A DNA stretch of 61,747 bases, filler included, from Hausera hauseri (lineage: Eukaryota), in assembly GCA_046269625.1 (NCBI GenBank). It is 11 parts of 11 records of this genome, joined end to end, with 100 filler letters (N's around TTAATTAATTAA, not from the genome) between each part and the next. Parts side by side here need not be neighbours in the genome. Positions count along the whole stretch, not along the records: positions 32,414 to 36,839 come from JBJURY010588111.1; 10 more parts are not named here. One strand, 5' to 3'. Both the position numbers and the translations under genes were made by a program. Within the stretch, counting starts at the first letter, position 1. Each line of letters begins with the position of its first letter. Below are positions 8,001-49,319 of the stretch, in pieces. The notes below the pieces were generated by a model. The model searched no databases. It was not told where the DNA came from and worked only from the letters and a program-made list of their open reading frames with translations.

Positions 8001-10301
8001 CATCTTCTCCATAAAGGAACTGAATGATCTGATCCATTTGATTTCTGACTGTGCCATCATACATTACCATAATCGATTCCATAGCTTTGATCAATCGTCG
8101 TTGTATATATCCAGTTTCTGCGGTCTTTACGGCGGTATCAATGACACCTTCTCTACCACCCATTGCGTGAAAGAAAAATTCAGTCGGTGGCAATCCATCA
8201 GCATATGATCTAGTAACAAATCCTTTGGATTCTGAACCTAAGTCATCCTTATCAAAATGCGGTAATGTTCGTTTTTGAAATCCAAACGGAATACGCTTTC
8301 CTTCGACGTTCTGTTGACCAACTACAGCCATAACCTGGCAGATATTAATACTTGATCCCTTTGCCCCAGAACTGACCATAAGATTGAAATTGTTGTTCTT
8401 CGGTAACTCTTGTGACACTTTACTCCCGAGATCTTTTCGAGCATTGTTTAATAATGCATTGACCTTATATTCCACTGTTTCACGGTAGCTTTTTCCTGGT
8501 TCACTTTTAATATTTCCTGCACAAGCATCTCCAAGTGTTTCTTCCACACTTTTTGTGCATTTATTAATTCTATTTCTGATTTCCTTTTTCAACCTTAAGT
8601 CAATAGTAGCATCAGCGATGCCAATTGTGTGCCCTTCTATCAATAGCCAGTTGTTTATTACGGTCTGTACATTGTTGAAAAACATGCCAACTTCATCCGC
8701 TGAATGTTCTAAAGCCAAGACATGGATCAAAGATCCTTGACCACTTCCTAAGGTCTTTTTGCATAGCATACCGCATATCAATTCACCATCATCAATTATG
8801 ACATTCGTGTCGAATGGAGATATTCTATTAGTCTCTTCATCTACTTTATCGTCATGTGTCGAATGAAATGCCCTGCAATTAACACGGCCTGGAATTATCG
8901 CTGAAAATAATTGTTTTCCTGTCCACAATTGCTGTGGTTTATAAATGGCTGGCCTTGGCATTTTTCCATCCCACGTTGAAAGATGCATCAGCAGGTTCAT
9001 CATTTCAGATTTGGTGAGAAAAACGTCTCTACGGGTCATTTTATTGGACGCAGTTAGTGTATCCTGTACGATACTCATGACTGGCTTGTTACTTTGCGGT
9101 GTAATTATTAACTTTGTAACACGGGCAAGTTCTGATACTTCTGCTTTTGTTTCAAGAGACTGTGGAAAATGTAAATTCATTTCGTCGCCATCAAAATCTG
9201 CGTTATAAGGTGTTGTGACACTGAGGTTCAATCGAAATGTTGAGAAGGGCAAAACTTTGACTCGATGGCACATCATTGACATTTTGTGCAGAGTTGGCTG
9301 TCGATTAAATACGACAATATCATCATTGAGCATATGCCGTTCAACAATGTAGCCGTTTTGTAATCGCACATCTTTCGTATCTGCTCGCCTTTTGAGATCA
9401 ATTCGCTCGCCGTTTTCCCTGATAACAAATGATGCACCAGGATACATTGAGCCATTGTTGACGAGCTGTTGTAAAAATGCACAATTGTAAGGAGTAACTT
9501 TCTCTGGAAAAGTCAAATTTTGTGCGATACTTTTCGGCACACCGACTTGGTCAAGGTTCAAATACGGATCGGCTGTAATAACAGTTCTCGCGGTATAATC
9601 TGTTCTTTTACCCATTAGATTCGACCGTACTCTGCCATGTTTGCCCTTTAGCCTTTGTTTGATACTTTTCAACGGGCGACCCGATTTCTGTATGGCTGTT
9701 GGTAGCACAGGACTCTCATTGTCGAAGTACGTTCCAACGTGAAACTGTAGTTGATCGATTAAGTCTCGAAGCGCGACAGACGCCGCTCCGTTTTTTTCAG
9801 ACACCTTTATTGATTCATTGACCTTTACTATGTCTGTCAAAATATGAGTCAAGTCATCGTGTGCTCGACCATTCTGCATCACTACAGCAGGTCGAACTGC
9901 TAATGGTGGCACCATTAAAACAGTCAGAATCATATTCTCTGGACGAGAATATTTTGGATCAAAACCCAACAACTTACAGTCATCATTGCTTATACGGCTA
10001 AAAATATCGAAAATTTTTTCGGGTAAAAGAATTTCTTTGCCATTCTTTTTCCCATCTTCAATATTAGTTTCGATGTAATAAGTCAGTTGAGTGCGTTTAT
10101 ATTTTGGTTGAAACGCTTCACATTTCATTTGCTTGTTGTCTTTTTCATCATCAACTTCATTTTTTCCTCCTGCAAAACACCTTTTAGTTTTTTTTGCTAA
10201 TTCATATAGGCTTTCAAATCGTTTGCTGGGATTACTCCTTTTCAGAACTTCTTGTACATCTTTATTTTCCATGTTCACCAGCAATGCGGAACATTCATAG
10301 C
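5008..10301 (-). CDS. POLR2A: RNA polymerase II largest subunit, N-terminus cut by contig end, no introns in 5.3 kb
   Basis: NADFDGDEMN catalytic motif, FNRQPTLHKMSMM, bridge helix FFFHAMGGREG.IDTAVKTAETGYIQRRL, trigger loop EPATQMTLNTFHFAGV, C-terminal heptad repeats; frame open up to the gap (CYECSALLV). Confidence 0.98.
5113..5889 (-). repeat. RPB1 CTD 21-bp heptad tandem repeats (about 35 heptads)
   Basis: YSPTSPG/YSPTSPA block followed by YSPTSPN/FSPASPN block. Confidence 0.95.
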
Positions 10302-19345: not shown

Positions 19346-22300
19346 TGTGACCGACTTCCCGGCCGCCCGTCCTTTGTCAGTGGGTCCCACACCATGGTTC
19401 ATTCAATTGGCACGCCATCCAATAGGTCCTGTGACACCTCTTTCGTTTTACTTTTTATTAAATAATTCTCAAATACTGACGCACAATATAACATACTATA
19501 TAGATTCACTGTACGTACACAAATATATTAACATTTTACTGCCCTTTCAAACTTTTACTGAACTCTTAATAACCTACCATTCGTTAATGCCAATGTCCGC
19601 AATTTTTTTCTACTTCAATCCCACAATTGGTTATTCATGTACATTTGCGCATACGTGGTGAAATGGACTCTTCATCCACCATTGGCACCACTAACACAAC
19701 TACCTCTAAACCATCACATTTTGCTTTTCACCAAAAATCAACGACCGTAACCACACCATCTACTTTCACCAGTAATACACCTTCCACCCTGCTAGCCAAA
19801 CACACTTCTCAGTGCACAGAATATTTTATTAATCATTAAAACTATAGCAAAACCTGGCTTAGTTTTCACAAACTTTGGCTGAAGTCTAACAACGTTACTG
19901 ATCCCTTAGCAAAAGCTCATAGTTTACATTCCCTCTTACCAAACACAGTAAAGACTTCTGTTCACGATATTTTAGACATCTTTCAACAAGCTGACCCATA
20001 TATACATATTTATAACGCAGTCTTAAAACTTACCGAACCGTCTATAGATTCCATAATCCATAGATTTTTTAATGATAACGCAATGGGAATACAAAAGCCT
20101 TCAGAGTTCCTGCGTACGTCGTTGACTCACCTACAAACGCTAGATGTAACTAAGCAGCATAATTCAAACCTTCTGCGACGATATTTCTTAAACGCGTTGC
20201 CTATACAAGTTAGGGCACTTCTTACCGTTGTCGAAGAATCTACGGCATTGGATAAATTGGCGAAATTGGCTGATACAGCACATGTAGTGCTACAATCGAA
20301 TTCTCAACCAATTGTATCAGCAGCGATTACGACAAGCGACAATCAACTCAATACAACAATGGAGCAACAGTTGAGCCAATTACGCGTTAAAAATTTAGCA
20401 CTATGCCAGACAATAAATAACATTAATAATAGGTTGAACGATCTTTCATTACCACGACGAAGTGTTTTTATTCATAATCATATTCATTCTGTTTCCAGAA
20501 ACAGGTCACCATCGCCTACACGATCCTTTGTGTGCTATTACCATAGCAAATTTCATAATAAAGCTAATAAATGCTGTTTAGAGTGAAGATATTACACTCC
20601 ACATTTACATTCAGATGACCGTTTGCATCTACCATGCGAAATTTGGATTCCACGCTCAGAAATGTCTTTCAGGCTGCAACTATAAGAACAACGCTAACCA
20701 TACTACCGACAGACGTTCTATTTCCCCTAGTAATAGTCGGCCGATCTCACCAATCCAAAAAAACTAATTTCGCCGCCAGTATGCACGGCAGAGTCTGGTA
20801 AAGGGAAATTCTCTAATACTACCTGCCGACACTTTTTTTGCAGTCTTCACACTAAAGGATTCAATAACCACACCAACAACTCAACCCATAGACTTCCTTA
20901 TCGACACAGACGTTGCGGTTTCTTTGCTCCCACTCACTTTCCCTGTAAAAAATTCACCATTCAAAGCTAAATCCTTATTTAAGACTTTAGGACAACTGCT
21001 AGACATTTCAGGTGCATCTAAATTGTCGGTCATCTTACCAAACTTTCAGTCCACGTTTCATTGGACATTTATCGTCGCTAACCTCGGCACAGCAATCCTA
21101 GGTTCGGATTTCTTATCGCACTGTAATCTCTTAGTTGAATGCAAACAACAATGTGTGAAACGTAACACTAATGGATATCTTACCGAGTGAAAAAATAGTA
21201 TATCTTCTAAGGCACAAACAATCTTCCCGAGGAAGCCTATACTCAAAAATCCTGTAAGTAATCCAAACTTCTTCGAAAGCATTTTTCATTTTGTAAATTT
21301 TTTAATGCTAATATCGATATTCAGTCGAGATTTGGTTTTGACAACTATGATTGCGTTGGTTCAGTACATTCACTAGACAAAATTACCTCTTCAAACACTA
21401 TTTTTAATACTACTATTCTGCATCAAATTCCCCTTGATTTCAATAACTCGCAAATATCACTCGTCACTGCACATATTGACTCAACACCATCAACATCACC
21501 CAGTCTCTCGCAATTGCCTGCAAGTCTACGGCAATACATACACACTTTATGACCCCGATTAATCCAGAAGGACCGAACCTTCACACCTACAAACAGCACT
21601 TTTCATCACATCATAACGCAACACCAAAGACATATTCGTCAAAAGGTACGTCCATTGTCATCTCGTCGTAGGCAAGCTGTCGAAGCGGAATTTCTAGACC
21701 TTGAACGCTCCGGCATTGTACGCAGGTTTAAATGGCCGTGGTCTTCGCTTTACACGTTGTCCAAATAAGATGGATACTTCCGACCATGCGGTGATTACCG
21801 TCAGCTAAACACTTTAACTGTTATGGATGCATATCCTTTATCATTAAGGATATCCTGCACCGGCTCAATTCCTCTACAGTATATTCAACCATAGACTTAG
21901 CCAAGGCATATCATCAAATTTCTGCAGGACCCGAGGACATCGAGAAAACGGCCGTTACGACACCTTTCGGCCTGTGAAAATACATTTATATGCCTTTTGG
22001 TTTACGCAACGCTGTTCAGATTTCCAACATCACGTCGATTCCATCCTCTCGGATTTCACTTCCGCGCATCCATATATCGACAATATCTTGATTGCTTCAT
22101 CTTCAATCAAACAGCATGAGGAACACCTCCGTTCTATTTTCAAACGACTCAACCACCATAATTTATAAATTAATTTTACGAAATGTCACTTCTTCCAAAA
22201 GCATATTAACTTTCTCGGACACATAATTTCAGCAAATAGTCATTCTCCTCAGCCAGAACGTGTTGATGCTCTCAAGAGTATACAACTACCTAAAACAACA

Positions 22301-22727
22301 ACAGAAATGAGAAGCTTTTTGTGAACTTTGCATTTTGTTCTCAAGTATGTGCCGTATTGCTCTGAACTTACCGCACCATTTGCTCACTTAAGCGGCGGCA
22401 AAAACATCAACCAATTCAGTGGACACCTGACCTGGTCATAAGTTTCATAAGCTACGCGAAGGAATTAAGACAGTCGACATTCTCGCTTTCCCCAAGCCTG
22501 ATGCGGAACTCATCCTTACTACAGACGTGTCAACCACTGCGGTAGGTGCGGTGCTTCACCAAATCCTCAAAGAAAAAATATCAACCGTTGGAATTTTTTC
22601 TCGTAAGCTAACATCCCCTCAATCTAGATATTCAACGTTCGATAGAAAATTATTGGCCATCGTTCTTGCTTTAAAGCATTTCTCCCACCTACTTGTCGCT
22701 CGCCATTTTACCATACAGACCGATCAC
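19346..22727 (+). mobile_element. Decayed Ty3/gypsy element, family B (5' LTR ~19346-19625, gag, protease, RT, RNase H)
   Basis: gag KPSEFLR...CYYH.KF...A.KC, AAAAAAC slippery site near 20760, FLIDT, DLAKAYHQI, YIDNILIAS, TD.STTAVGAVL, YSTFDRKLLA. Confidence 0.9.
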
Positions 22728-22827
22728 NNNNNNNNNNNNNNNNNNNNNNNNNNNNNNNNNNNNNNNNNNNNTTAATTAATTAANNNNNNNNNNNNNNNNN
22801 NNNNNNNNNNNNNNNNNNNNNNNNNNN

Positions 22828-25800
22828 TGTCTTTTATCAATTTCGACTCAAATGCTTTCCCGCAGTCTGTATGTATTTCTTTTGGTGCTCCATATTTGAG
22901 GATCTATTTCTTTTCTATCTCTGCTTTGATGGTTGCTTCGTCTTGCCTTGGTATAGCAATTAGGGTTAGGTATCTATTGTACTGATCTATCATTGCTAAA
23001 ATGTACCATTTTTTTCATGTCTCCTTCATTGGTCCACAGATATCTATATATTTTTTCTCGAATAGCTTATTTGCTGATAGGGTCACTGTTTCTTCCTTCG
23101 TGCTCATTGTCAAGGTTTTGCTTTGCTTTTTTTGTCTGGACTGCTTGTCGTAGGTTGTCCATGTCACAGTTAATGTCAATGTATTTTGTTACCTTTTCTG
23201 ATCCTGCGTGGGACAGCATGACATAATTGTGTGTTATCATTTCTACGAGTCTGTTCGTCGGTATCCAAATCTTACCTGTTCGTTTTTCTATTATTCAATC
23301 CTCTAGTATAAATCTTCCTTGTTTTCTTCGGGCAATGCTTTCTTTCATTTCTTCAATTTCCTTGCTATCCTTCTTGTATTGGTGTGTTTCTACTGTTCTA
23401 CGACGTTTATAATTCGAGTCTTGCTTTTCTACATTTTGGTGTCGTCGTGTTGTTGTAGACATTGGCTGCATGTTTCGCAACTCGTGCGGGATAGCATATC
23501 TGCGTTCGCATGATCTTCGCCTTTTCTGTACTCCAGATTGATGTTTAGACTGAATAGGTAGTTGATCCCCGTCTGAAATTGGGCTGTTATAGGTTTTTTT
23601 GTCTTTCCCATTTGTGGTCCGTTCTTAATGTGAACCGTTTCCAGTATATGTAATGGTTGAAATGTTGACAGAAATAATACATGGCCAGTAGTTTTTTCTG
23701 AGTTATACAATATCCTTTTACATGGTTGTTCATTGTTTGTGATACGTACGCAATAACTCTCTCGCGCCCCAAACTATCTTTCTGTGATAGTACCACCCCA
23801 ATTGTGTCAAAGCTTGCGTCCGCATCGAGGATAAATTCTCTATCGAAATCAGAGAAACCTAGTATTGGTGGTGTGGCTAAAGCTCTTTTCACTGACTCAA
23901 AAGACTTGTTACATTGCTCGGTACATATTAGTTTCTTGTTATTCAATTTGCATAGTTGCTCCAATGTCTTGACCTTTGTTGCGTAACCTTGGATAAATAT
24001 GCTATAGTAGTTGCAGATCCCTAAGAAGCTTCTCAATTTCTTGACACATTTTGGTTTCTCAAAGGACTTAATTGCTTCCGGTCTTGACGGATCTGTCTGC
24101 ATCCCCTTCTTATTCACTATGTGCCCTAAAAATTTTACTTCTTTCTTACGGATGTGATATTTCTTTGGGTTTATTCTGAGACCTGTTTGCGTGATCCGCT
24201 GCAATACCTTTTCTAGTATCCTATAATGCTCTTCTAGAGTCTTACAGAAGATTAGTATATCATCTAGGTATACCACTGTTTGTTCAATGTCCCCTAGTAC
24301 TTTATTCATTAGTTCTTGGAAGGTGCCCGGAGCTGCTGCTATGCCGAATGGCATCCTGTTAAAACAGAACTGTCCTAATTTGGTTGAAAATGCTGTCTTC
24401 AATTTGGAGTCTTCCTCTAACTCGACTTGGTAGTATGCATTCCCTAGGTCGATTGACGTGAAAACCTTTGTCCCGTATAACCTGTCCAATATCTCTACCA
24501 CGTTAGGCATGAGGAAGGTCTGCCGTTCCGTTATAAGATTCGGCTGTGTGAAGTCCAAGCATATTCTGACATCGTTCTTGTCTTTCTTCCATACGCATAT
24601 CATTGGTGTATTCCATGCTGGGTTACATGGCTTGATAATGTCGTTTTCTCATAGGTTTCGGATGGCCTCGTCAATCTTTTTTTCTAGGTTCACTAGTTGC
24701 CTCTGAGGTTTGATATTAATCGGGGCTCCTGTCGTGTCTATTCGGTGTTTGATGAGAGATGTGCACCTTATATCCCACTTGTCGGCCATGAATATTTCTG
24801 GGTATTTCTGTATAATGTTGAGTAGCTCTTTGTTGTCACCCACATGAAGAGCTTCCTTTGCCCTGTGTACTTGTTCTTGATTAGTCACCTTACGGCCGAA
24901 CTTGTCTTCCAGGTTGAATATATCTTGCTGTAATGTCTCCGTTTCCATGCGTTTCCATCCCAGTTCTATTCCAAATGCCTTTTGCAGGTCCACATCACCT
25001 ATTATTTCTGGGAGTAATTCCGATACTACCAGGAATGTCACACGTCTCCTTAAATCCTTGATTTCTACGTCTGTTGTAAATGTGCACAGGCAATCTAAAG
25101 GGCTATTATTCGCGCATCGTAGCGTGGTATCTGATTTATCTATGTGTGTGTTTGCAAGTTTATCCACGGTCTTTTTGCTTATGACGTTTACCCCGGCCCC
25201 TGTGTCCAATAAGCAATCTGCCCATCTGTCTTGTATCTTTAATTTGATTCCTGGTCGTCCATTAAACTTCATATATGATATCTGTTCGACATACAATTCT
25301 TCCAGCGTAGAGATCTGCGTATCGCTCCCACTTTCTTCCATTCCGTTGAAGGATACTTCCTCGAAATTTTCCGTACTTTTTCCTATGTCCTTTTATCCAT
25401 CGCTATATCTCCGTGCCCCCTTCTTCTTGATCCGTCTATACTGTTTGATATACTACTAATACTATAAATAACGATATTTTAGGAGACTGAATCTATTGTA
25501 GTGCCCCGATTTGCTCCACTTTTATCGAGGCTCTACCTTTTGTGGCAACTGACTCCTGATCAGATTCTGTTTCTTCTTCCTCTACGTTTGCGACTTCCCC
25601 CCATCTTCTGTCCACGTTATCCCCGTACCTTCTTTTGACTCTGTACGTATCCCATCCTAGTTCTCTTGCCCCTTCTGTTGGGACTTGACTATTCAGTTGG
25701 GGAATCCTGCAAAAGTCCGATCAGAAGTGTGGGAACAATCAGAATTTCAAAATTGTGTATATAAAAGAGTGTGCGCGTGTATATATAAAATGGAGTGTGT

Positions 25801-28212: not shown

Positions 28213-31079
28213 TGGTCTGACTGCCTCGGCTAGGTCAGAGGTACTGAGAGCCAAATGTAAACTACACGTATCCATTTCACATAGCTGAAAGTCGATCCTA
28301 TCAACATAGTTATCTATAAAATCGTAATAAAACTCTAACATTCTCAACTTTGCATCTTGATTTACGAAAAAACCTATTTGTAACGGGAGATTCCAAACTA
28401 TTTTTTCCTTCTGACTAATTTCTGTCATTTTTTAAATAGAGGCTATAACCGATTCGGTAGTGAGTGTCTTCACCCTTACTGTAAGATACGTCAGAGTGTT
28501 CGGCTATATTGGTAAAAGTTTTGCCATAAGTGGCATTCCCCAACAACTTCATCGACTTGCTGATAATGGCATATACGTTGTCGAGATCTGCCAGTCGCCG
28601 AGCATCCGAGACCTTTTACCAACCTCTTTGAAACATGCCTTTAAATGGTACTCAATGACCCAGTACACGTTTGTGACTTGTAGTCCGTGATTGATATACC
28701 ACCGTAATAACAAATTCACCAGGAGAATCTTTTCACTTTGTAACTCCCCACCAGCGTGTGGCGAGGACTAGTCAAGAGTTTGTTCTCTATCGTATTTACG
28801 CATAAAATCCCCTATGTCGGCTCTAGACGCTTCGACGATTTTGAATATCGGAGTCATTTCAGGCAAATGAATCTTTAATTCTTTGGGGACGTGTATATCA
28901 CACTCTACCAAGCCAAAACATTTCCGGTCCTGTACAGCTTTCAGAATTTCTTCTTTGGTCGGTGACCGAAGGAAGGTGATTGCGCCTTAAAGGGCATAGT
29001 GCGCAGAAAAGCCTTTATTGCTAGCTTTGATTTTTTTCAGAGCATTCCACTCAAATTCCCACATCACCACGACTTCAGCGAGTTTAGATATTTGCTCGTG
29101 AACCGAGGTTCTTTTGATTTTTTTAAATTATCTATTTATTCCTAACAGAAATATCCCTTATTTTCCTTTATCTTATACGTGGCTAGATACTCGCTATAAC
29201 TAAAACCCTACGCTAGGTAATTACACAAATCTAAAAATTTCACATTTGGCGTAGAAAAGCACATAAAGTTATTGTTTCTTTTAACTATAAAATTACGAGG
29301 CTTGGCAGAAGCTGCAGCATATCTAGCCTCGTTCTTTTTGGGGTTTCCCATCGTCACTGCTTTGAGAGGCGTGTGCAGTTATTGGGAATGGTTTAATCAC
29401 GTTAATATCATATTTTCCCGAGTTGAATCCTATGACTGGGAGCTGGTACAAATAAAACGTCAATTTGTCTAGAAGCGTTCTATCTTCTAATTTGCCCAAG
29501 ACTTTAATCACTTCCTCAAATTGTTTCTTTAACAGCTTAAAAGCCGTCTCTGAAATTTCTTGGAGCGTCTCCGTTTTTAAGAAGCAAATTGGATCCGTCA
29601 TTCCAGACACGTTAGAAAGTACAGAGATAACGGGACGTGTTTTGTGATAAATTTCGTCGCACCAGCCTCGGGAGGCAAATCTGTCTAGTGGAAACAAAAT
29701 AATAGTCGCCCGATAGGGGTACACAAAGTTTGTGTCATCTAATATTCCGAGTAGATCGATTTCCTCCCAAATAGTCTCGTGTGGAATGTAAACACCACCC
29801 TTATAGACATCGACAGGTTTTCTCCCAATACAAGTCTCTTCGTGTCGCATCAACATTTGGTGTTTGCCGCATTTGCTATATGAAAAGGCATGCGGCGCTT
29901 GATCAGTGTCCGAAATATGGATGAAATGGTTCCTATACACTAATAAATATAGTGTTTTTATATATTCACCGCTACATCTGAGTTTCGGGATGAGTACCTC
30001 TTGTTGGTCAAACTCAAAAATATCTATATGTATTTGGAAACGTTCTTATAATTTGGGAAGATCTGTTAAACTAACCCCAGGGAAACTGTCCAGTGGTTGG
30101 AACTCCTGGTAATCCGTGTTGGAGGCGTTGTTGTGTGCTTCGTCTAGTGTCCTTTGTTTTTTTACCTCTAAAAACTGCTAAACATCAAAAGAAACATAGA
30201 TTGTCTGTATAGAGCCTTAAGCTTGAGTCATATTGTAGTGTAAAAATGGCTGGATTTCGTGTAATATTTTCGAGTATTTGGTCTAGAGTGCATCCTATCG
30301 GGTATTCGTTTAAGTGTATACACAAAAACTAGATGATGGAATTGCTTCTACGGCGTATTTTGTGTCTGGCCTACTGTGTAATGAAAACTAAGTGGATCGT
30401 CTGGTTCTAAAGCCCTATCGAAATCTACAAAGTCTGCCCTTTTGTTAATGAGTTTAGGTGTGTCTAAGACAGCTGCATTGTTTGATGATGCGTGGTAAAA
30501 CCGTAGGTCCCCTGTCTCCCTGTGCCTAAGAAAAAAATGGTGGCTGTAGATAATATTAAACTTACGTATTTGACGTTTAAATATGTTGTCTAAGAGACAG
30601 GTTCAGTCCAAACGGTGATCAGTATCTGGTCTGTGGAAATATGTGTAAGTGGAAATGTGTTTGACAGTGTTTCTGTGTGTTTTAATAGACGCCCAATTGT
30701 CCATGTACTTCTGTCTGAGATAATCAGCCAAATGATTTAATGAATCAAAGTCAGAAACATTTTTCTTTGACTTCTCAAGTTTTGGTTTTTTTCCTTAAGA
30801 AAACACAGTCCCCTCATTCGAAGGAGTAGATCTCGGTTCTTCTCTTGAGAAGGAGCAGATCACACACTTGAGAGATGATTCAACGGCTTTTTATCGGCCG
30901 GTTGAACGGGAGCAGGTCTCTTTAGCGAGTCACTGTGTTCCTTTTGGATATGTGTTTTTAAATTTCGACCGCACACATCGCAGGTATGTTATTTGCAGGG
31001 ATGTGTAGATTCAGTATGTCGACACATATTTGTAGCGCGGGTAAAGATTCGCTCACATTTACCACAAGTATGTCTTTGT
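28213..31079 (-). pseudogene. Polinton protein-primed family B DNA polymerase with N-terminal C2H2 zinc fingers; fragmented
   Basis: LPVIGFNSGKYDINVIK (ExoII), VVMWEFEW, MKLLGNATYGKT (motif B), QIGFFV...AKLRMLEFYYDF, CEMDTCSL (motif C); HTCGKCERIFTRATNMCRHTESTH near 31000-31075. Confidence 0.9.
29120..29320 (+). mobile_element. LTR end + primer-binding-site relic interrupting pPolB
   Basis: ...TTTCACA (29244) TT TGGCGTAGAAAAGC; coincides with a large deletion in pPolB. Confidence 0.4.
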
Positions 31080-32413
31080 CTATGTGGAAGAAGAAACAAA
31101 ATATACGTTTAATAAGATTGGCTTCTAACCCAATTAATGCTGTTCTTCAACTTGGGACCAATCCTCCAGACAATGTAATCCTGTCACTAGTTCAATGTTT
31201 TCCATCACAGGATGTTTCCTTTCTCCTACTGTGCAAGGCTTTCTAGCACTCCCAGGTATTCAATGTTTCCCCGAGATTCCCGTTACCCGAAGCCACCATC
31301 TCACAATACATAAACACAGTCAAGTTACAAATAATGATTACTCGATCTGTACCCCCTAAATGTCTAAAACCAGAATGAAAGCTGTCTCTTGGTTCACTAA
31401 TGACACATCATTCTATATGTACTCAATACTGTTTTTTAAAAACAAATGCTACTCCAATACTTTTCTTTACAAACACATGTCTAAAACTAAATAAAAGCTG
31501 CCTACTCACTATACACAAATATTATTATCGAACCTTTTCTGCAATAGGCCTCACAGCAGTTATTAAACCATTAGACACAACGGCGGTCTCATTGGATTGC
31601 ATAATTTCCATTGGTACTGAGACAACATGATTCATCGATTGTTACTGAGACAATAGATTAGATGTGCCTTAGATACTACTTAATAACTGCAACTACTTAA
31701 ACCTCTAGTACAGAATAAACTTACTTTAATGGAGTGAGCAGGGCGGCGAAATAACCGAACAATGGTACCGTTACAAAAAAACGAATAGCTTATAACTCAA
31801 AAAGTTCGGCTTTATATATGCGTGTTGTGTTTGGCCACCTACCGCGATGGCCCACTATGTCTAGACTCGGCGACGCTTATTTAATTAGCTACAAGGAACT
31901 GACTGTTCCTTGTCATCACTAATGTGTGTCATGGTCTGACATGTCTGATACGTGAGTGAGATTATCGGGGAAAATTTCCCGCTGCCGCGTATCAGGTTCT
32001 CTACCTGTCAAACATGTCAGCCTACTTTAGTATGTTAGGAAATGTGGAAATAAAATGTTTTGATAAGAGATTTTAAAGGGTTTCAGTATGAGAAATCTTT
32101 TAAAATATTTAAATGCCTTTTGTAGTAGAAAATGTTGCTTGTGAATATCTATATATAAAAAGTCCATTGTACACGCCTAAGAAGGCGTATAGGTAATTGT
32201 GGAGTTAGTGTGCACATATTTTCCTAGACATCGGCACATAATTTGGTTATGTTGTCAGCATAACGCCAGGCCGCCTTTACTTTCCCAGAGAATTTCTCCG
32301 GTACCCATTTTTGNNNNNNNNNNNNNNNNNNNNNNNNNNNNNNNNNNNNNNNNNNNNTTAATTAATTAANNNNNNNNNNNNNNNNNNNNNNNNNNNNNNN
32401 NNNNNNNNNNNNN

Positions 32414-32871
32414 GGAAAACACCGAGTAGTGGTTTACGCCGAACCGTTTCAAGACCGCTGCAACGTGGGCGTTGTAGAATTCCTTATCCAAATCCGTTTG
32501 TAAATGCTTAAGCTGTTGTAGTTGTATCAGTGTCTGAACAGCGTCGGCAATCTCTAACGGATTTAGATTTCACAGCAATTGCACGTGCAAAACGACTAAA
32601 CACTTCAATACATGTCAGCACGTACCAATACCCATCGTTGATGCTGCCGTACGGATTCATTTCCATCAGATCCATTTGCCATGTTATTTACACCGGCAGT
32701 ACGGTATGCACGAGTTGGAAACCGTCTTTTTATCGGTTTGTTTAGGCTGTATGCTAACTGTTTCTCGAGTCAACGTTAGGTCTATTGCCGAGTCTGTTTG
32801 ACAGTCTTTGCCACTTTGTCGACTCCACTATAGCCGACGGGATGACGCGGGTCGAACCACACGTTGCCCAT
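32414..32871 (-). pseudogene. Polinton retroviral-like integrase (N-terminal half)
   Basis: WFDPRHPVGYSGV, LEKQLAYSLNKP, WQMDLMEM, GYWYVLTCIEVFSRFA, LQTDLDKEFYN. Confidence 0.9.
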
Positions 32872-33018
32872 CGGTCTTGTCGTCGATGGTGCGGGTTTTT
32901 CTTGCTTTACAACAATTAGAACAAAACGTAAATGAAAGATTTGGTAAACTGGGACAGAAAGGTGAAAACCATGCACCCATATCGCCGAATCATCATAGAC
33001 TTACCATCATTGTTTATA

Positions 33019-33345
33019 CTATGCTGCTGTAGAATTAATGAGTCCACCCAGTAATGACGTGACAATCGGTAGAATTGCACCAAGCAATCCACCATCTTGC
33101 TGGTACATGACCTATCGTTTCAGTCGTTTACTACGAGCGTTGGCAAGGCTAATGAGTCGTTTCCGGTACTTTAGTAAATTCCGCTTCCCACTATCAATGT
33201 CAACGTGACCTACAACGATATTGTATAAAATTTCCATCAAATCGTCTACTACAAATTGCGGGAATGATCGTAGCATGTTTTGCTTATGTCTCGAAGGTGC
33301 CTAGAGTAAAGCAATACAGTACGGCTGACTACGTTTGAATCGCAT
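33019..33345 (-). pseudogene. Conserved Polinton/adintovirus small protein with C-terminal amphipathic (membrane-active, cupiennin-like) peptide
   Basis: Manual translation: ...LMEILYNIVVGHVDI...LLKYRKRLISLA...YQQDGGLLGAILPIVTSLLGGLI; two internal stops. Confidence 0.7.
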
Positions 33346-33381
33346 TTTTTGGACGTATTGATGCTGCTGAGAGGTAGTTAT

Positions 33382-33552
33382 TTATAACTGTTGCCACTGT
33401 GACGGTAATTTGCGTCTAGTTGCTGCTGCTGTTGTTCGAAGCATAGAATTGATTAATGGCTTGACTGTAGCGGTTCGTTTTGATACACGTTTCTTGCCGA
33501 GCACCCGCTTAGTAGGTTTACGTTTAACAATTGTTTTTCGGAAATTCTTCAT
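33382..33552 (-). CDS. Small basic protein, possible virion core/DNA-condensing protein
   Basis: MKNFRKTIVKRKPTKRVLGKKRVSKR..., between ATPase and membrane-active protein on the same strand. Confidence 0.45.
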   Translation of the reverse strand: MKNFRKTIVKRKPTKRVLGKKRVSKRTATVKPLINSMLRTTAAATRRKLPSQWQQL

Positions 33553-33577
33553 TTTATCACTATCGTGTCGTCGATTT

Positions 33578-34217
33578 TTAAATTTGTTTAGACACACCTT
33601 TCTGATTGAAAATGTCTGTTCGTACACGCATGTCATCGGGACGCTGTTGTGTAAAGTCGATGAACAAGTATCCGTGTGGCTCGATCGTAGCATCATGATA
33701 TGCATCTATCAAGTAGGCTCGGTTGTGAGAAAATGCTTGTCGTGCAACATAATCAATAATAGTCTGATCACGGGGATTTTTTGAACAACACCAAATAGTG
33801 TACGTTGAGATTTCTTGTTCGATGCTGTCCGTCCTGATAAAACATGTTTTGCGTAATGAAAATAACCGTCACACCACGGTGTCGTGCAATCTTAGTGAAC
33901 AGGTTGTTGAAGTCAGTTTATTTCGTTGCCTCTTGAAATAAAACGTCAATTACAACAACGTTACCGTTGCGTAGTCGTTATTATTATTACCGTTATCGAT
34001 TTCAGTTTACAAAATTCCCAATGTGTCAAACCTGACTCTCCATCATCACCGCTGTCCTGATGCCAGTAAATGTGATTGAACAGCGCCGACTGGAATATAT
34101 CACGGTAGTTCTGCATCAATTTGCAAAGTGTGTTTTGCCACTTCCACAGGGGCCTACAATCTGGAAAATGGCACTATTCTGCAGCTTCATGTCGTTCTTG
34201 ATGCATTTCTCATACAT
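33578..34217 (-). pseudogene. Polinton A32/FtsK-like packaging ATPase
   Basis: Walker A GPCGSGKT; LFTKIARHRGVTVIFITQNMF; NLNVHYLVLFKNPRD; AYHDATIEPHGYLFID; frameshifted. Confidence 0.9.
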
Positions 34218-34275
34218 TTTGTTTATAATCACACACACATAAATAGGTGCAGCATGAACACTGTTCCAATCAATC

Positions 34276-34683
34276 ATGATAACCAATATTAACTACCATG
34301 GACATGTTACTGAGTGTATTAATGCGCTGCCGTTTAATCAATGGAAGCCGAGACAGTATGTCTACAAATGTCCACCGGATATTGCATGCATCATTTCCAT
34401 CGGGAAAGTGTCGTATTATGGGTTTTCGCAAACCAATCACAAATGATGGACATCTACCATTCGGAATTATCACTGACCAAATTCAATCAATAACGGTAAA
34501 GACTCAGATTGCTCACCACCACCACCACCACCATCAATTAATCTGCACAAATTAACAATGGCTACCAAATGTATTTATGAGCCCGAACTGTTTCCTACAC
34601 TGCGACTAACACTTACGCCGCCTTGTGTCAATGATTTTAGCAATGGAAAATTTGTCGTATTGGGAATTCGGTCAATCTACTGA
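34276..34683 (+). pseudogene. TATA-binding-protein-like gene within Polinton (two frameshifts)
   Basis: Reconstructed MITNINYHGHV...ACII/FPSGKCRIMG...IQSITVK...INLHKL...IYEPELFPTLRL...VNDFSNGKFVVLG: two TBP half-repeats. Confidence 0.75.
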
Positions 34684-34748
34684 GACGACTACTAATCAAA
34701 TTAAACACCACAAGTGTTTTACTGAATCAAAGTAATATACTCTGACCA

Positions 34749-35207
34749 ATGGATTATAAATATCATTCTCATATTCGTTCAGACATTACTACTATGGAAA
34801 ACGATGATAAAACAATTCTGCTAAATAATACTTCTGACAATGACAAAAGTACAGATTGGTCATGGCTGTTTGGTGACAAGAATGACAATGTCAGCTATTT
34901 GGAACCAAAACCTCTACAACAATTAGTAAAACCGATATTAAAACTGCAAGGGAAAATTATTGGTGGTAAACACATGTCAGATGAAGACAGAGCGATAATA
35001 TTCAATGGTGATGATGATGATGAGAGTTTCGATTTTTCACAAATGCTTAGTGGCAACAATTCTAATGTCAACTGTCTGGAACCGAAAATAGAATCTGTCA
35101 AACAATTAGAAAAGCCTAAATTAAAACGACAAGCGCGAATGACCAATAGAATACAGAAACGAAAATTAAAGCCTACGCATCAAACACTGTCATTTTTACC
35201 GACGTGA
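34749..35207 (+). CDS. Polinton accessory ORF with internal duplication, unknown function
   Basis: DWSWLFGDKNDNVSYLEPK..QQLVKPILKLQ vs DFSQMLSGNNSNVNCLEPK...KQLEKPKLKRQ. Confidence 0.5.
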   Translation: MDYKYHSHIRSDITTMENDDKTILLNNTSDNDKSTDWSWLFGDKNDNVSYLEPKPLQQLVKPILKLQGKIIGGKHMSDEDRAIIFNGDDDDESFDFSQMLSGNNSNVNCLEPKIESVKQLEKPKLKRQARMTNRIQKRKLKPTHQTLSFLPT

Positions 35208-35649
35208 CGTTTTCGAAAGTATGAAATGCATTATCTGCAAACGCATGTACAGTTTTCGTTGAATGGTCTGGTGTTGTTGACCACACCCAAGTACAGTTAT
35301 CGTGTAAAGCAGGCATCAAGTGAAAATGCTGCGAAACTTGGTGATGCTTTAAGTCAATTAAACATGGACTTAAAGTTGAAAGAACCGGCTTTACAAAAGT
35401 AATATGTCGTTTTACCGGCCGCAAAANNNNNNNNNNTAAAATGTCTAATGTGCCCGATGACTTAAAGTTGTCGACTCAACATTAAATTGCAGGCATACAA
35501 AGAAAAGGTGTCAAAAGCCCGATTAGGTGTTTATCCGAAGCACTTTTTGATTATCAATAAATGTTGTTGTTGTTGTTGTTTTGATTTTCTTCTTCTTCAA
35601 CAATGAGTATAAATATACATGTGTAATGGGCTTTTCATTAATAATGATA

Positions 35650-36116
35650 ATGAATTATGTAAAAATTATTTTGACGGATAAAAGTGCAACTGTACCGAAA
35701 CGTGTTACGGCAAGCAGTGCGGGCTACGATGTGTTTTCCAATGTCAATACGACAATTCTGGATAGCACAATCAAATGCATAACGACTGGGATTCGATTGG
35801 CGATTCCACCCAGTTACTATGGCCAACTTTTATCGAAAAGAGGACTGGCAAAACTCGGACTGCCGCTTGGGAGCGGTGGTGTCATTGGTTCAGACTTTCG
35901 TGGTGAAATTAAGGTGTTGTTGGAAAAACTATCCGGGCTATTGTATGATATTGCGAAAGGCAGTGCATTTGTACAAATCGTTTTTCTTCGATGTGAAGAG
36001 GCGGAATTTAGTGTAATGTCACCGGAACAATGGGATAGTTCTGTGTCAATGAAGCAACTCGAAATGAACGCAAAGAATTTGGCTTTGGCGATACGGACAA
36101 AGCCACCTATGTTTAG
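35650..36116 (+). pseudogene. Trimeric dUTPase (Polinton-borne), frameshift before motif 5
   Basis: SAGYD, GQLLSKRGLA, GVIGSDFRGEI, FVQ; alternative frame gives NERKEFGFGDTDKATYV* ending 36116. Confidence 0.85.
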
Positions 36117-36269
36117 TGATTGTGATAATAAGAGTAATAATAATAGTTAGTTGTTTTTTGTGTTATAAACAAAAAGTGATTCTGTGCATGATAATTAATG
36201 CAGACAGCATTTACAGATATTGAAACTTTTCAAGATTATGTCCGGTAGATTATAAAGGAATTATGAGTT

Positions 36270-36686
36270 ATGTACGTCGGTAACATTTTCAAACCGCTTG
36301 TGTACGTATTCAAGCCCACCGTTATGTGGAATCATTTGACAAAAAAGGCGAAAATTACCAATGGATATCTCATACGACGTCGTAATGGACTTTGTTGGCA
36401 CGAAGGCAATTCAACGTTTTGCGTATCATGTATCATGCGAGACATTTGTGATCGTTCTGACATTGAAAATACAATATTTTCTATTAAAGGTCAAATTGAC
36501 AGACAAAAGTTTACACTACTACATTCATACTTTCCCGAATTGCGAATGACAACGTATTCAACAACATTGAACAGCTCGATGGCGATGGTACCTGACAATA
36601 TTACATGTCCGTATTGTGATCATGCACCGCACTGTGCTTACAAAAAATTTCTACGGCTTTGTATTGACTATATTTCATGCAAATAA
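36270..36686 (+). CDS. Cys/His-rich Polinton accessory ORF, unknown function
   Basis: 138 aa open, CWH...CVSC and CPYCDHAPHC, AATAAA at the stop. Confidence 0.5.
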   Translation: MYVGNIFKPLVYVFKPTVMWNHLTKKAKITNGYLIRRRNGLCWHEGNSTFCVSCIMRDICDRSDIENTIFSIKGQIDRQKFTLLHSYFPELRMTTYSTTLNSSMAMVPDNITCPYCDHAPHCAYKKFLRLCIDYISCK

Positions 36687-36939
36687 ATAAATGTATTTCT
36701 CTGCTTCTTTTTTTCTTTCCGTTAATGAGGTCCGCCATATTGGTCAGTTAAATAGTTCAAAAACTACAAACACGAATAGGAAATAATAATAATAATCATG
36801 GAAATAGTTGATCAATTGAAGCAATTGCGAAATTTTGATNNNNNNNNNNNNNNNNNNNNNNNNNNNNNNNNNNNNNNNNNNNNTTAATTAATTAANNNNN
36901 NNNNNNNNNNNNNNNNNNNNNNNNNNNNNNNNNNNNNNN

Positions 36940-39900
36940 GCATGTTTCGCAACTCGTGCGAGATAGCATATCTGCGTTCGTATGATCTGTGCCTTTTCTG
37001 TACTCCAGGTTGATGTATAGACTGGATAGGTAGTTGATCCACGTCTGAAATTGGGCTGTTATCGGTTGCATGTCTTTACCATGAACGTTAATGTTTTGTG
37101 GTCCGTTCTTAATGTGAACCGTTTCCCGTATAGGTAATGGTTGAAATGTTGACAGATAATATATGTCCAGTAGTTTCTTCCGAGTTATACAATATCCTTT
37201 TTCATGGTTGTTCATTGCGTGTGATCCGTACGCAGTCACTCTCTCGCGCACCGAAATATCCTTCTGTGACAGTACTGCACCAATTGTGTCGAAGCTTGCA
37301 TCCGTATCGAGGATAAATTTTCTGTTGAAGTCAGGGAAACCTAGTATTGGTGGTGTGGCTAAAGCTATTTTCATTAACTCGAAAGCCTCGTTACATTGCT
37401 CGGTCCATACTAGTTTTTGTTATTCAATTTGCATAGTTACTCCAGTGTCTTGGCCTTTTCTGCGTAACCTTGGATAAATCTTCTGTAGTAGTTGTAGATC
37501 CCTAAGAAGCTTCTCAAATTTTTGACACATTTTGGTTTCTCAAAGGACTTAATTGCTTCTAGTTTTGATGGATCTGTCTGTATCCCCTTGTCATTCACTG
37601 TGCCCTAAAAATTTTATTTCTTTCTTTAGGATGTGACATTTCTCTGGGTTTATTTTGCGACCTGCTTGCCTGATCCGCTGCAATACCTTTCCTAGTATCC
37701 TGTAATGTTTTTCTAGAGTCTTTGAGAAGATTAGTATATCATCTAAGTATACCACTGTTTGTTCAATGTCCCTAGTACTTTATTTATTAGTTCTTGGAAA
37801 GCGCCCGGAGCTGCTGCTATGCCGAATGGCATCCTGCTGAAACAGAACTGCCCTAATTTGGTTAGAAACGCCGTCTTCAATTTGGAATCGTCCTCTAACT
37901 TGATTTGGTAGTATGCATTCCCTAGGTCGATTGACGTGAAAAATTTGGTCCCGTATAATCTGTCCAGTATCTCCACCACGTTAGGCATGGCGAAGGCCTG
38001 CTGTTTCGTTATAAAATTCAGCTGTTTAAAGTCCAGGCATATTCTGGCATCTTTCTTGTCTTTCTTCCATACGCATATTATTGGTGTATTCCACGCTGAG
38101 TTACATGGCTTGATAATGTCGTTTTCCGATATGTTTCAAATGGTCTCATCGATTTTTTTCTCTAGATTTTCTGGTTGCTTTGAGGTTTTATATCAATCGA
38201 CGCTCCTGTCATGTCTATTCGGTGTTTGATGAGAGATGTGCACCTTATGTCCCACTTGTTGGCCATGAATACTTCTGGGTATTTCTGTATAATGTTGAGT
38301 AGCCCTTTATTGTCACTCACTTGAAGAGCTTCCTTCGCCCTGTTGACTCGTTCTTGGTTACTCATCTTACAGCCGAACTTGGCTTCCAGGTTGCATATAT
38401 CTTGCTGCAATGTTTCCGTTTCCATGCGTTTCCATCCCAGTTTTATTCCGAATGCCTTTTGCAGGTCCACACCACCTATTACTTCTGAGCGTAATTCCGA
38501 CACTACCAAAAATGTCACACGTCTCCTTAGACCCTTGATTTCTACGTCTGTTGTAAGTGTGCCCAGGCAATCTAAGGGGATATTGTTCGCGCATCGTAGT
38601 GTGGTATCTGATTTCTCTATGTGTGTGTTTGCACGTTTATTCATGATCTTTTTGCTTATGACGATTTCCCTGACTCTTGTGCCCAATAAGCAATCTTCCC
38701 ATCTGTCTTGTATCTTTAATTTGATTCCTGGTCGTCCATTAAACTTTCTGTATGATATGTGTCCGACATAAATTAGTCTAGCGTGTCCTTTTATCCATTA
38801 CTATATTGCCATGTCCCCTTCTTGATCCATCTATACTGTTTGATATAATACTACTATTATACATAACGATATTGTGGGAGACTGAAACTATTGTAGTGCC
38901 ACTATTTTCTCCACTTCTGTCGGGGTTCTGCCTTTTGGGGCAACTAACTCCTGTTTCGATTCAGTTTCCTCTTCCTCTACGTTTGCGACGTCCCCCATCT
39001 TTTTTTCAGATTATCTCCGTACCTTTTTTTCACTTTGTGTGTATCCCATCCTGGTTCTCTTTTCTCCTCCAGCCTTGTGTAGCACTCCTTTTCTGTATGT
39101 CCGCTATGGTGACATCTTGCACAGCTAAGGTTTGTACAACTTCGTCTGATGTGCACTAGCTGACCACATCCGTAGCATCTTACTGGCTTTCTTTCGGGAC
39201 ATTGCCTGCTTATGTGTCCTTTTCCACATCTAAAGCATTTTATTAGTCGCCGTACGGTGCAAGATCTGCTCGTATGTCCTTCCTTCTGCATGTCTAACAC
39301 TTTAATCTACTATTTTGTGGTCTAATAGGAGTCGTGTTGATTCTAGGCACGGATTTCCTGATATTTTGTGCCGCCACTTCCTGATAGCTTCTTCTAACGA
39401 TCCCCGAATACTCTTTGACCGTGTTGACTTCTTCTGTCTTAATCTTAACTTTGTGTAACATCCGTATTTTCTCCTTTATTGTTTTCGCGTCTAGTTTGTC
39501 ACTGAGGCATATTTCTCTTTTCATCTCTCTATTGTTACAACATTGGAACAACAGTTTCTCTTTTAGAGCCGCGCGTGAAAGATTGTGTTTCACGATTTTA
39601 TTCAGAAGTTTCTCGATTGCCTCGAAGTAAGCCTTCAGTTCCGCTCTATTCATTCTGTACTCGAGCACTTCTTTTAGATCTTCGCATAGCGTTGAGGGTC
39701 GTGCGAAAGCCTTTCGTAGTCGGTTTTGGTATCCCGTTATCCCTGCATCTACTACTTCGTACCTTTATAGTACATATTCCTTCAAGAGGCATTCAACCAT
39801 GATTTCCCGTTTCCCCTCCAGAGTGTTCATATATTTAAAGAATTTTTCACATGCTTTAATGAACTTCTCCATGTTGTCGCCTTTCCCAAATTTGTTGGGC

Positions 39901-47449: not shown

Positions 47450-47549
47450 NNNNNNNNNNNNNNNNNNNNNNNNNNNNNNNNNNNNNNNNNNNNTTAATTA
47501 ATTAANNNNNNNNNNNNNNNNNNNNNNNNNNNNNNNNNNNNNNNNNNNN

Positions 47550-49319
47550 AAGCCATCCACAGTGACTGGACTTCGCAGCTTCCTTGGCACGATCAATTTC
47601 TGCCATCGCTACATTCCGCACTGCTCAGAAATCCTGTCACCTCTGTCTGCTCTAAGCCAAGGACCCAAAAAATCCCAGTTAAATTGGATAGATAAGGCTG
47701 AACAGGCATTTGTCAATGAAAAAATGGCGCTTCTCCACCTACCTACACTACACTATCCTAAACGAGATGCACCGTTCATCTTAACAACAGATACATTCCA
47801 TAAACAACCCATCTTCTCGTCAACTGCGGCACATTTCATTTCTATCAGAATTCTCATTTCAGATAGAGCACATAACTGGGAAAGACAATACAGTTGCTGA
47901 TGTCTTTTCCAAAACTGGGATATCGACAATATACTTTGACCCAATTTTCACGGAAGAGGTTCTCCGATCGAACCCTCCATATGAAGACGATGTCACGTTC
48001 TTCAAAACAGTCGAAACAAAGGATGGAATACACTACAATACCATCCTCAATGGTTGTCCACGCCCAATTCTGGCAGCAAGCCTACTGAAACAGGTGTTTG
48101 ACACCATTAACAACATCCATCACCTTGGGTCAAAAGCCACAGCTTGCCTATTAAGCAGCAGAGTCTGTTGGCCTCGCATGCTAAGCGACATAAAGCGGTG
48201 GACAAAAGAATGTTCAATTTGCCAAGAGTACAAAGTCAACAAGATCCTACAACCCCCAATCCTACACTATCTTACTGGCTCACGGTTTGAAACCATCCAC
48301 ATGGACATAGTTTGACCACTTCCCGATTGTAATGGATATCAGTACATCCTAATTATTCTCAACCGGAAAACAAGATGGCCCGAAGCCATTCCAATCCGCC
48401 AAATAACAACGCAAAGCGTTGTGGTTGTATTGCTAAATACTTGGATTTCTCGGTTCGGAGTACCCAAAAGCATTATAACAGTTCAAGGAACCCAACTCGA
48501 GTCAGCCATGTTCAGCAAATTGACAAAATCGTTTGGTTCCAAGCACGTACATACATTACCCTACCATCCACAGGCGAATGGCTTGATTAAACTATTTTAT
48601 CGTACAATCAAATCATCCCTACGAATCCTTTGCCACGACAACAAGAACTGGCTGGATGCATTACCAATTGTGCTATTAGGATAGAGAAACACTACGAACA
48701 CTAGCACTGATGCCTCTCCGGCACAACTATTATTTGGTGCCCACCTCACATTCCCACAAGATCTGGTAAGCAACGAGGAAGTAACTTCAATCCCTGCTCT
48801 CAACCAAGCTCGGAAGCATTTTCTGTCAATAGACACAAAAATGCACAACAATCACAAAAAAAACCAATCATGCCCAAGAACCTACGAGATGCATCTTTTG
48901 TCTGGCTCAAAAGCCAACAAAGATAAGGTTTTGTACCATACTACACGGGCCCCTACAAGCTCATAGAAATCACTGAGCACAACGCCAAAATATTATGCGA
49001 CAACGCTGAACATATAGTCCACTTGTCGAACATAAAACCCTCATTCGGTTATCACGATTCCGATATAGAAGATCCTATTTATCAAGACGTACCAAGCATG
49101 TCAGAAGTAGACAAGCTTCGACAAAACTATGAGAAAATTGATCCATTCAATATGGACACTCCCGTAGCATATGACCCAACCCCGGTCCAAACTGAAACGC
49201 ATATCACCCCAACGCCCATACATCTAGAAAGGGAACGTACGACAATACGTAACCAAACCCCTGCCGCACCGATATTGAGTCGCACCAGGAGTGCATCAAA
49301 GATACCTCGACTCCAGTAA
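47550..49319 (+). mobile_element. Decayed gypsy pol (RT end, RNase H, integrase)
   Basis: LRSFLGTINF, HHLG...WP....IKRWTKECSICQ, IHMDIV, WISRFGVP, YHPQANGL, YTGPY. Confidence 0.88.

Follow-up and report, generated by a model that had tools for sequence, protein, structure and literature searches.

The window, by which we mean the whole 61,747-nt stretch of DNA that was analysed, is a string of short contigs separated by N spacers. One of these contigs, at 32414-36839, carries a decayed Polinton copy with genes in the order integrase, small conserved gene, packaging ATPase, TATA-binding-protein (TBP)-like gene, acidic ORF, single-strand DNA-binding protein (SSB)-like gene, dUTPase and a further Polinton gene. 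Two genes of a Polinton, the rve integrase and the A32-type packaging ATPase, are both present. The integrase (32414..32871, minus strand) is broken, and the end of the contig truncates it (tblastn E 6e-40; Pfam rve at E 2.8e-5 stays below the cutoff). A TATAAAC box on the same strand (33012..33018) stands 38 nt ahead of ATG 32980, which opens a short ORF running into the integrase. This ORF is also seen in L020; it has a Met-Gly start, bears cysteine and precedes or overlaps the integrase start, with the box upstream, and a short pre-integrase ORF with a box occurs in one of seven relatives checked. Between the integrase and the ATPase lies the small conserved Polinton gene (33037..33345, minus strand; tblastn E 1e-22), which we label PY-like, with a canonical TATA box 41 nt upstream in this copy. 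A short, very basic ORF between this gene and the ATPase (33385-33552, minus strand) has a one-mismatch box 40 nt upstream and may encode a DNA-condensing core protein.

The ATPase itself (33581..34190, minus strand) is broken and was recognised by tblastn with the ATPase of the related locus L023 (E 2e-51), which in turn matches Pox_A32 in Pfam. In the sequence, a TATAAAC box (34221..34227, minus strand) lies 37 nt ahead of the ATPase start, and a TATA-like box (34238..34245, plus strand) lies 38 nt ahead of the TBP start; the latter is one letter from canonical TATA, and that letter varies among copies in the contigs of sequencing run X1. These are the two intergenic motifs that had been pointed out in the original prediction. 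Both are real: TTTATAAT is the opposite strand of the TATAAAC box at 34227-34221, and CATAAATA is the box 38 nt ahead of the TBP start. They represent one box per direction, because TTTATAAT precedes the ATPase and CATAAATA precedes the TBP-like gene. The gap between the two genes had been given as 58 bp and is in fact 85 bp, with a relative's ATPase aligning from residue 1 at 34190. The head-to-head arrangement exists here but is not a conserved order, since of the 28 related loci that bear an ATPase two have the genes diverging, and in neither do they abut; the layout is incidental.

Downstream on the plus strand, a canonical TATAAATA box (34755..34762) lies 40 nt ahead of ATG 34795 of the acidic ORF. 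A gene piece at 35208..35402 follows, from a family that by prediction encodes single-strand DNA-binding proteins of the T7 gp2.5 type, and then a second canonical TATAAATA box with the dUTPase gene (35608..36150; Pfam dUTPase E 9e-16). A further TATAAAC box (36164..36170) stands 34 nt ahead of ATG 36198, the start of a broken conserved Polinton gene (36198..36686; tblastn from residue 1, E 8e-25) that is called exonuclease-like from an acidic motif and matches no Pfam family. The 4.4-kb contig ends inside the element, and no DNA polymerase is found on it.

Several other features lie elsewhere in the window. A neighbouring contig holds a broken polymerase-like region at 28213-32313, read from motifs and with no Pfam match; its pieces do not match the polymerases of four relatives, and it probably belongs to a different element. 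An adenain-type protease fragment at 7-297 (tblastn E 1e-11) comes from another Polinton copy, and a diverged repeat, 75-84% alike, is shared by two contigs (704-1056 and 55567-56533). On the first contig a long RPB1 frame (5008-10272) runs on without interruption and has a tail of heptad repeats. Ty3/Gypsy-like retrotransposon remnants were recognised from translations at 19840-25459, 36892-39764, 47502-54662 and 57605-61422; in the last of these, pol is still a long open frame.

The TBP-like gene runs on the plus strand from ATG 34276 to about 34745, in five pieces with four frame breaks. The first piece (34276..34392) spans the start, the first strand and the shortened first helix of the N-lobe, and shares 74-77% identity over 39 aa with residues 1-38 of the intact relatives P0066, P0109 and P0252. 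Past the first break, the second piece (34394..34516) contains the N-lobe phenylalanine, strand 5, the short linker that stands for helix 2 and the first C-lobe strand, with 76-80% identity to residues 40-80 of the same relatives. The second break falls in a CAC microsatellite (34514..34533), recognised from the sequence and the frame change between the pieces. The third piece (34534..34680), up to 69% identical to its relatives (P0109), covers the C-lobe, including the two glutamates of the TFIIB site and the two phenylalanines of this lobe, and ends at the third break. What remains of the last helix (34682..34745, end approximate) is spread over two further frames, the fourth break lying at about 34704-34711; its colinear matches with the three relatives, at 34682-34711 and 34704-34727, are only 8-23 residues long. 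A reading of the whole last helix in one frame was rejected in favour of this two-frame remnant, as it scored only at about the 90th percentile of random stretches.

Much of the earlier description of this gene holds, with corrections. The motifs IFPSGKCRIMG and YEPELFP...FSNGKFVVLG are both present in the sequence, in different frames. The two frame slips proposed are confirmed, near 34393 and in the CAC tract (about 34514-34533), but the total is four rather than two, the further two lying after 34677. The proposed protein of about 135 aa is too short, as the closest relatives have 149-160 aa and the gene continues beyond 34683. Of the two half-repeats claimed, the C-lobe is complete but the first is truncated. 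Twenty-six contigs of run X1 lose their match exactly at 34393, which suggests that the first frame break is not common to all copies. The window copy itself is dead and non-functional, and its value is that of a pointer to the family.

Several comparisons place the gene among TBPs. The piece at 34477-34680 exceeds the Pfam TBP cutoff (PF00352; 27.6 vs 22.9 bits, E 2.6e-6), and the pieces upstream of 34477 matched no Pfam family. A profile built from 42 intact relatives scores three consecutive window pieces at 21.6, 40.8 and 59.3 bits, and the next best six-frame segment of the window at 4.1 bits. When the C-terminal piece is compared with the PDB, TBPs top the matches, archaeal ones first. 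The reading named beforehand as the one that would undo the claim, the landing of a recent pseudogene of host TBP in the element, could be thought of in view of the four breaks in the copy. We give it practically no credence. The pieces are 69-80% identical to intact family members, the first two match no two-lobed TBP, and the intact relative P0002 has only 21-26% identity with eukaryotic TBP structures. The adjoining Polinton genes are as broken as the TBP-like gene, and the element exists in a large number of copies. In run X1, 28356 assembled contigs match the 4.4 kb contig and 1924 match the 701-bp stretch around the TBP-like gene, counts that are not independent support as run X1 is possibly the source of the stretch itself. 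With those 1924 contigs and with intact relatives inside Polintons, the host-pseudogene explanation is refuted.

The intact relatives form a large family. A search of 1.84 billion protein representatives with the C-terminal piece gave 59 matches, of which 42 short family members were aligned, leaving out 3 long proline-run matches, 6 two-lobed TBPs and 8 fragments or odd forms; a word-based protein search with the same piece gave no match. The family profile retrieved 366 proteins at E<=1e-20 among 1983 candidates, and 221 sequences fell into 131 clusters at 70% identity. Members are cores of 145-175 aa without an extra domain, and intact relatives score 53-66 bits against PF00352. One protein, P0032, apparently has two family-type C-lobes in tandem. 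A quick tree of 89 C-lobe columns places the window piece among the family, with seven two-lobed TBPs beyond a 97% branch; it gives no origin, because eukaryotic TBPs are not among its sequences and, of its 78 forks, 48 are open.

The home of this family is the Polinton. A metagenome scan gave 172 relatives, and the best 80 of the 172 loci were analysed: 50 of these carry one or more Polinton genes, the other 30 being only 1.0-5.3 kb long, and the window's ATPase is matched in 26 of the 80. In the long loci Pfam recognises rve, Pox_A32, Peptidase_C5 (adenain protease) and DNA_pol_B_2 (protein-primed polymerase), together with a weak capsid match; the protein-primed DNA polymerase B was found in the TBP-bearing relatives L058, L059 and L061. 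The survey for homologs thus finds intact relatives among Polinton integrase, ATPase, protease and pPolB genes, and the central claim, that a Polinton encodes its own TBP-like factor, stands in the form that the window gene is a decayed member of a large family of TBPs of about 150 aa carried by Polintons. The IMG/VR collection yielded less. Scans with the window ATPase piece and with an ATPase alignment gave no match, the C-terminal piece retrieved L001, a spurious phage locus that was discarded, and the single locus retrieved with the family alignment was L002, where a two-lobed TBP lies in a contig resembling that of a large virus.

Accessory genes also occur in the TBP-bearing loci, including a ubiquitin-conjugating enzyme (L023:225-719), a dual-specificity phosphatase (L017:4008-4316), a leucine-rich-repeat protein (L041:1918-3327) and a KilA-N protein (L061:7142-7999). 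For a frequent neighbour of the TBP gene (window 35208-35402; L006:1788-2135; 19 other loci) the prediction is a single-strand DNA-binding protein of T7 gp2.5/Enc34 type, its model having a pLDDT of 92.9 and matching with Z 8.4 and an rmsd of 2.8 over 103 residues. Some copies of this gene apparently begin after an intron.

The TBP fold that had been anticipated is borne out by the predicted structure of the intact relative P0002, which was modelled in place of the window copy and has a pLDDT of 96.6. The model is a saddle that superposes on human TBP (1cdw) with Z 13.2 and an rmsd of 2.6 over 145 residues, and on cellular TBPs over the whole length with a TM of 0.77. Its C-lobe is complete; in the N-lobe the first helix is short, and there is no helix between the strands at 45-51 and 65-78. 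Residues were tallied over the 131 clusters after the positions had been mapped onto two-lobed TBPs. Three of the four intercalating phenylalanines that kink DNA are kept (F41 in 130, F101 and F117 in all 131), and the fourth, in the N-lobe, is proline in 127 of 131. Both C-lobe glutamates of the TFIIB site are kept (E97 128/131, E99 131/131). New polar residues are near-invariant at DNA-facing positions: N6 in 121 clusters, R47 in 129, S72 in 124 and N115 in 131. The window copy shows all of these, namely the kept phenylalanines, the proline swap, both glutamates and the polar residues. At the position that we take to be the equivalent of the TBP leucine beside the C(-25) Hoogsteen pair of a variant TATA box, the family is aliphatic (I 59, L 41, V 30). 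The linker from strand 5 to the C-lobe peaks at 19-20 residues in the family and has 20 in the window copy, against 32-33 in three two-lobed TBPs; a longer-linker subgroup (most of L057-L082) has 27-31.

Compared with cellular TBPs (PF00352), the Polinton protein is alike in its predicted two-lobed saddle, in three of four intercalating phenylalanines, in both TFIIB glutamates and in its complete C-lobe. It differs in having about 150 residues rather than about 180, in its low identity, in an N-lobe with a short helix 1, most of helix 2 gone and one phenylalanine changed to proline, and in several DNA-facing residues replaced by invariant polar ones. Judged from the model, it is a protein of TBP fold that lacks two features of cellular TBPs, the set of four phenylalanines and the N-lobe helix 2 with its basic patch. 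In the portion available of PMC7221094, the two C-lobe glutamates are assigned to TFIIB binding and the basic patch of helix 2 to contact with TFIIA, TAF1, Brf and Mot1/NC2.

A second element of the system lies in the DNA. The 70 nt ahead of each gene class were lined up in the 80 loci, and boxes were scored 20-65 nt before the ATG. YATAAAC precedes 82 of 118 packaging-module genes and 0 of 66 TBP genes, and shuffled upstreams (300) gave 2.9 +/- 1.8. The 118 upstreams belong to ATPase, protease and PLA2 genes and to genes that we label, from their position, size and motifs, as putative penton and capsid, PY-like and exonuclease-like; integrase upstreams are excluded from the 118 and from the 32 control upstreams below. 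With one upstream per TBP cluster, the box is found at 16 of 19 ATPase genes, 13 of 15 PY-like genes and 0 of 39 TBP genes; it is patchy at putative major capsid (3/8), protease (1/5) and integrase genes (1/14). Canonical TATA has the opposite distribution, at 27 of 66 TBP genes vs 15 of 118 module genes, though after de-replication only 15 of 39 TBP genes have it in the tested range. A TAAGA box is rare, at 1 of 27 ATPase upstreams in the metagenome loci. As a control, though a weak one, nine IMG/VR Polinton loci with no TBP detected in them, all partial (4.4-15.7 kb), eight of them close relatives and representing about two lineages, have the box at 0 of 32 upstreams and canonical TATA ahead of the ATPase in 9 of 9; L092 was dropped from this set as phage-like.

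The contig of the window shows the same division. All three of its TATAAAC sites stand 34-38 nt ahead of an ATG on the right strand, and the TBP-like gene, the acidic ORF and the dUTPase have TATAAATA-type boxes 38-40 nt upstream. The PY-like gene, with its canonical box, and the basic ORF, with only its one-mismatch box, are exceptions. Over the whole window YATAAAC is not enriched (27 found vs 26.8 expected). Protein and box are connected by correlation, seen over a set of related elements.

It could be asked whether the box acts in transcription at all. The TBP-like protein might serve replication, packaging or integration, with ATAAAC being a signal at the level of RNA or translation; the TBP gene often adjoins the predicted SSB and the ATPase, and ATAAAC resembles the polyadenylation hexamer, here that of the upstream gene. 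We regard this as very improbable, as the box keeps a fixed distance to the ATG downstream (35-44 nt at 57 of 83 sites), even at the window ATPase with no same-strand gene upstream, and at 83 of 93 sites a T or C stands ahead of the core.

The reading that we favour, and think probable from the sequence comparisons, is that the decayed gene had intact versions in which a shortened TBP recognises YATAAAC as a box of its own and brings host TFIIB and Pol II to the packaging and capsid genes. Host machinery would transcribe the TBP gene early, since many copies have a canonical TATA box. The TBP would then bind YATAAAC; with the lobes oriented as in TBP-DNA structures, the altered N-lobe would read the 3' half of the box, the site of the unusual C. 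The two kept glutamates would dock host TFIIB, and the shortened N-lobe helix would allow escape from control by host TFIIA, TAF1 and Mot1. Loss of the helix is not what sets specificity, because members with linkers of 27-31 residues use the same box. The outcome would be a one-protein switch from early to late genes. Of the roles first proposed, the late-gene switch gains indirect support from the distribution of YATAAAC; blocking of host Pol II finds no support here.

Whether the viral protein is needed to read the box is a fair question. A cellular TBP has been crystallised on a C(-25) TATA variant (PDB 1qn3), bound via a Hoogsteen pair according to the accessible part of PMC4402545, so a host TBP can bind such a box. 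That the family keeps an aliphatic residue at the leucine position beside this pair also speaks against a need for the viral protein. To the host TBP or a paralogue, YATAAAC could then be a weak variant of TATA, which would leave another role for the viral TBP, for example that of a decoy that binds host TFIIB or promoters and damps host transcription. A kept TFIIB site with lost regulator sites would suit a dominant-negative decoy too. This account seems to us distinctly unlikely: the residues that face the DNA have changed and yet hardly vary within the family, a pattern suggestive of selection for a new, specific site, and the box is absent ahead of the 66 TBP genes and the 32 control upstreams.

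A related proposal accepts that the TBP binds the box, but has it either require element-encoded partners or act as a repressor or timer that holds the module genes off until replication. We judge this unlikely. The available part of a study of the TBP mimic of KSHV (Kaposi's sarcoma-associated herpesvirus) describes a requirement for six viral factors (10.1101/2025.08.25.672222), and several small conserved genes with no assigned role travel with the Polinton TBP gene. The near-invariant TFIIB-site glutamates fit the use of host TFIIB instead, no TFIIB family match was found among a subset of 56 ORFs scanned from the long loci, and the commonest neighbour without an assigned role has a predicted SSB fold.

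A precedent for the reading that we favour is that same herpesvirus system, in which the TBP mimic KSHV ORF24 acts with a TATTWAA late box, as set out in the available text (10.1101/2025.08.25.672222). The beta/gamma-herpesvirus mimics are alike in belonging to a virus without its own RNA polymerase, in having a TBP-like factor whose DNA-binding face is polar, and in a variant TATA box. ORF24, as described in the same partial source, is large and binds Pol II directly within a complex of six factors, and as modelled it is not compatible with TFIIB, whereas the Polinton TBP is a bare core with the TFIIB site kept and no Pol II-binding domain. By analogy, the Polinton protein would work like the herpesvirus mimic, and it is not a member of that system.

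Most nucleocytoplasmic large DNA viruses (NCLDV) have their own RNA polymerase. NCLDV-type TBPs are found among the structural matches to the P0002 model in BFVD, at 20% identity or less. They share with the Polinton TBP a virus-encoded TBP fold and loss of the N-lobe regulator signature, and large-virus TBPs diverge at the TFIIB site, such viruses usually carrying their own TFIIB (PMC7221094, in the part available, which does not mention Polintons or adintoviruses). TBPs are also listed in large DNA viruses in the accessible portion of PMC11410667.

In the open full-text literature, as far as the texts are available, the only direct mention is a TBP label in the MELD virus map of Starrett et al. 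2021 (Fig. 5 legend, PMC8502044), which may bear on novelty. By the legend, a TBP-like gene, possibly of the same family, occurs there in an element with an adintovirus-like PolB. The section that contains the label discusses no promoter or mechanism, and the supplement, so far as it is accessible, does not mention TBP. The available portions of two Polinton surveys mention neither TATA nor TBP.

The chances seem to us evenly balanced that a whole branch of Polintons has a one-protein orthogonal promoter system, in which a TBP of 150 residues, its DNA face rewired, recognises YATAAAC and turns on the virion module, still working with host TFIIB and Pol II but rid of the host regulators. The formation of virions by Polintons and the timing of their genes are an open question, which a self-encoded factor and a matching box make directly testable, and with no more than a small protein and a site of 7 bases. 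For the study or construction of orthogonal promoters, a natural TBP of altered specificity that has kept its use of host TFIIB would offer a compact tool. If true, the one-protein system would be the smallest viral switch for late transcription so far known, and it would extend the late-promoter strategy of herpesviruses, in a simpler form, to a virus lineage far removed from them. It would also be evidence for a staged, virus-like expression programme in Polintons.
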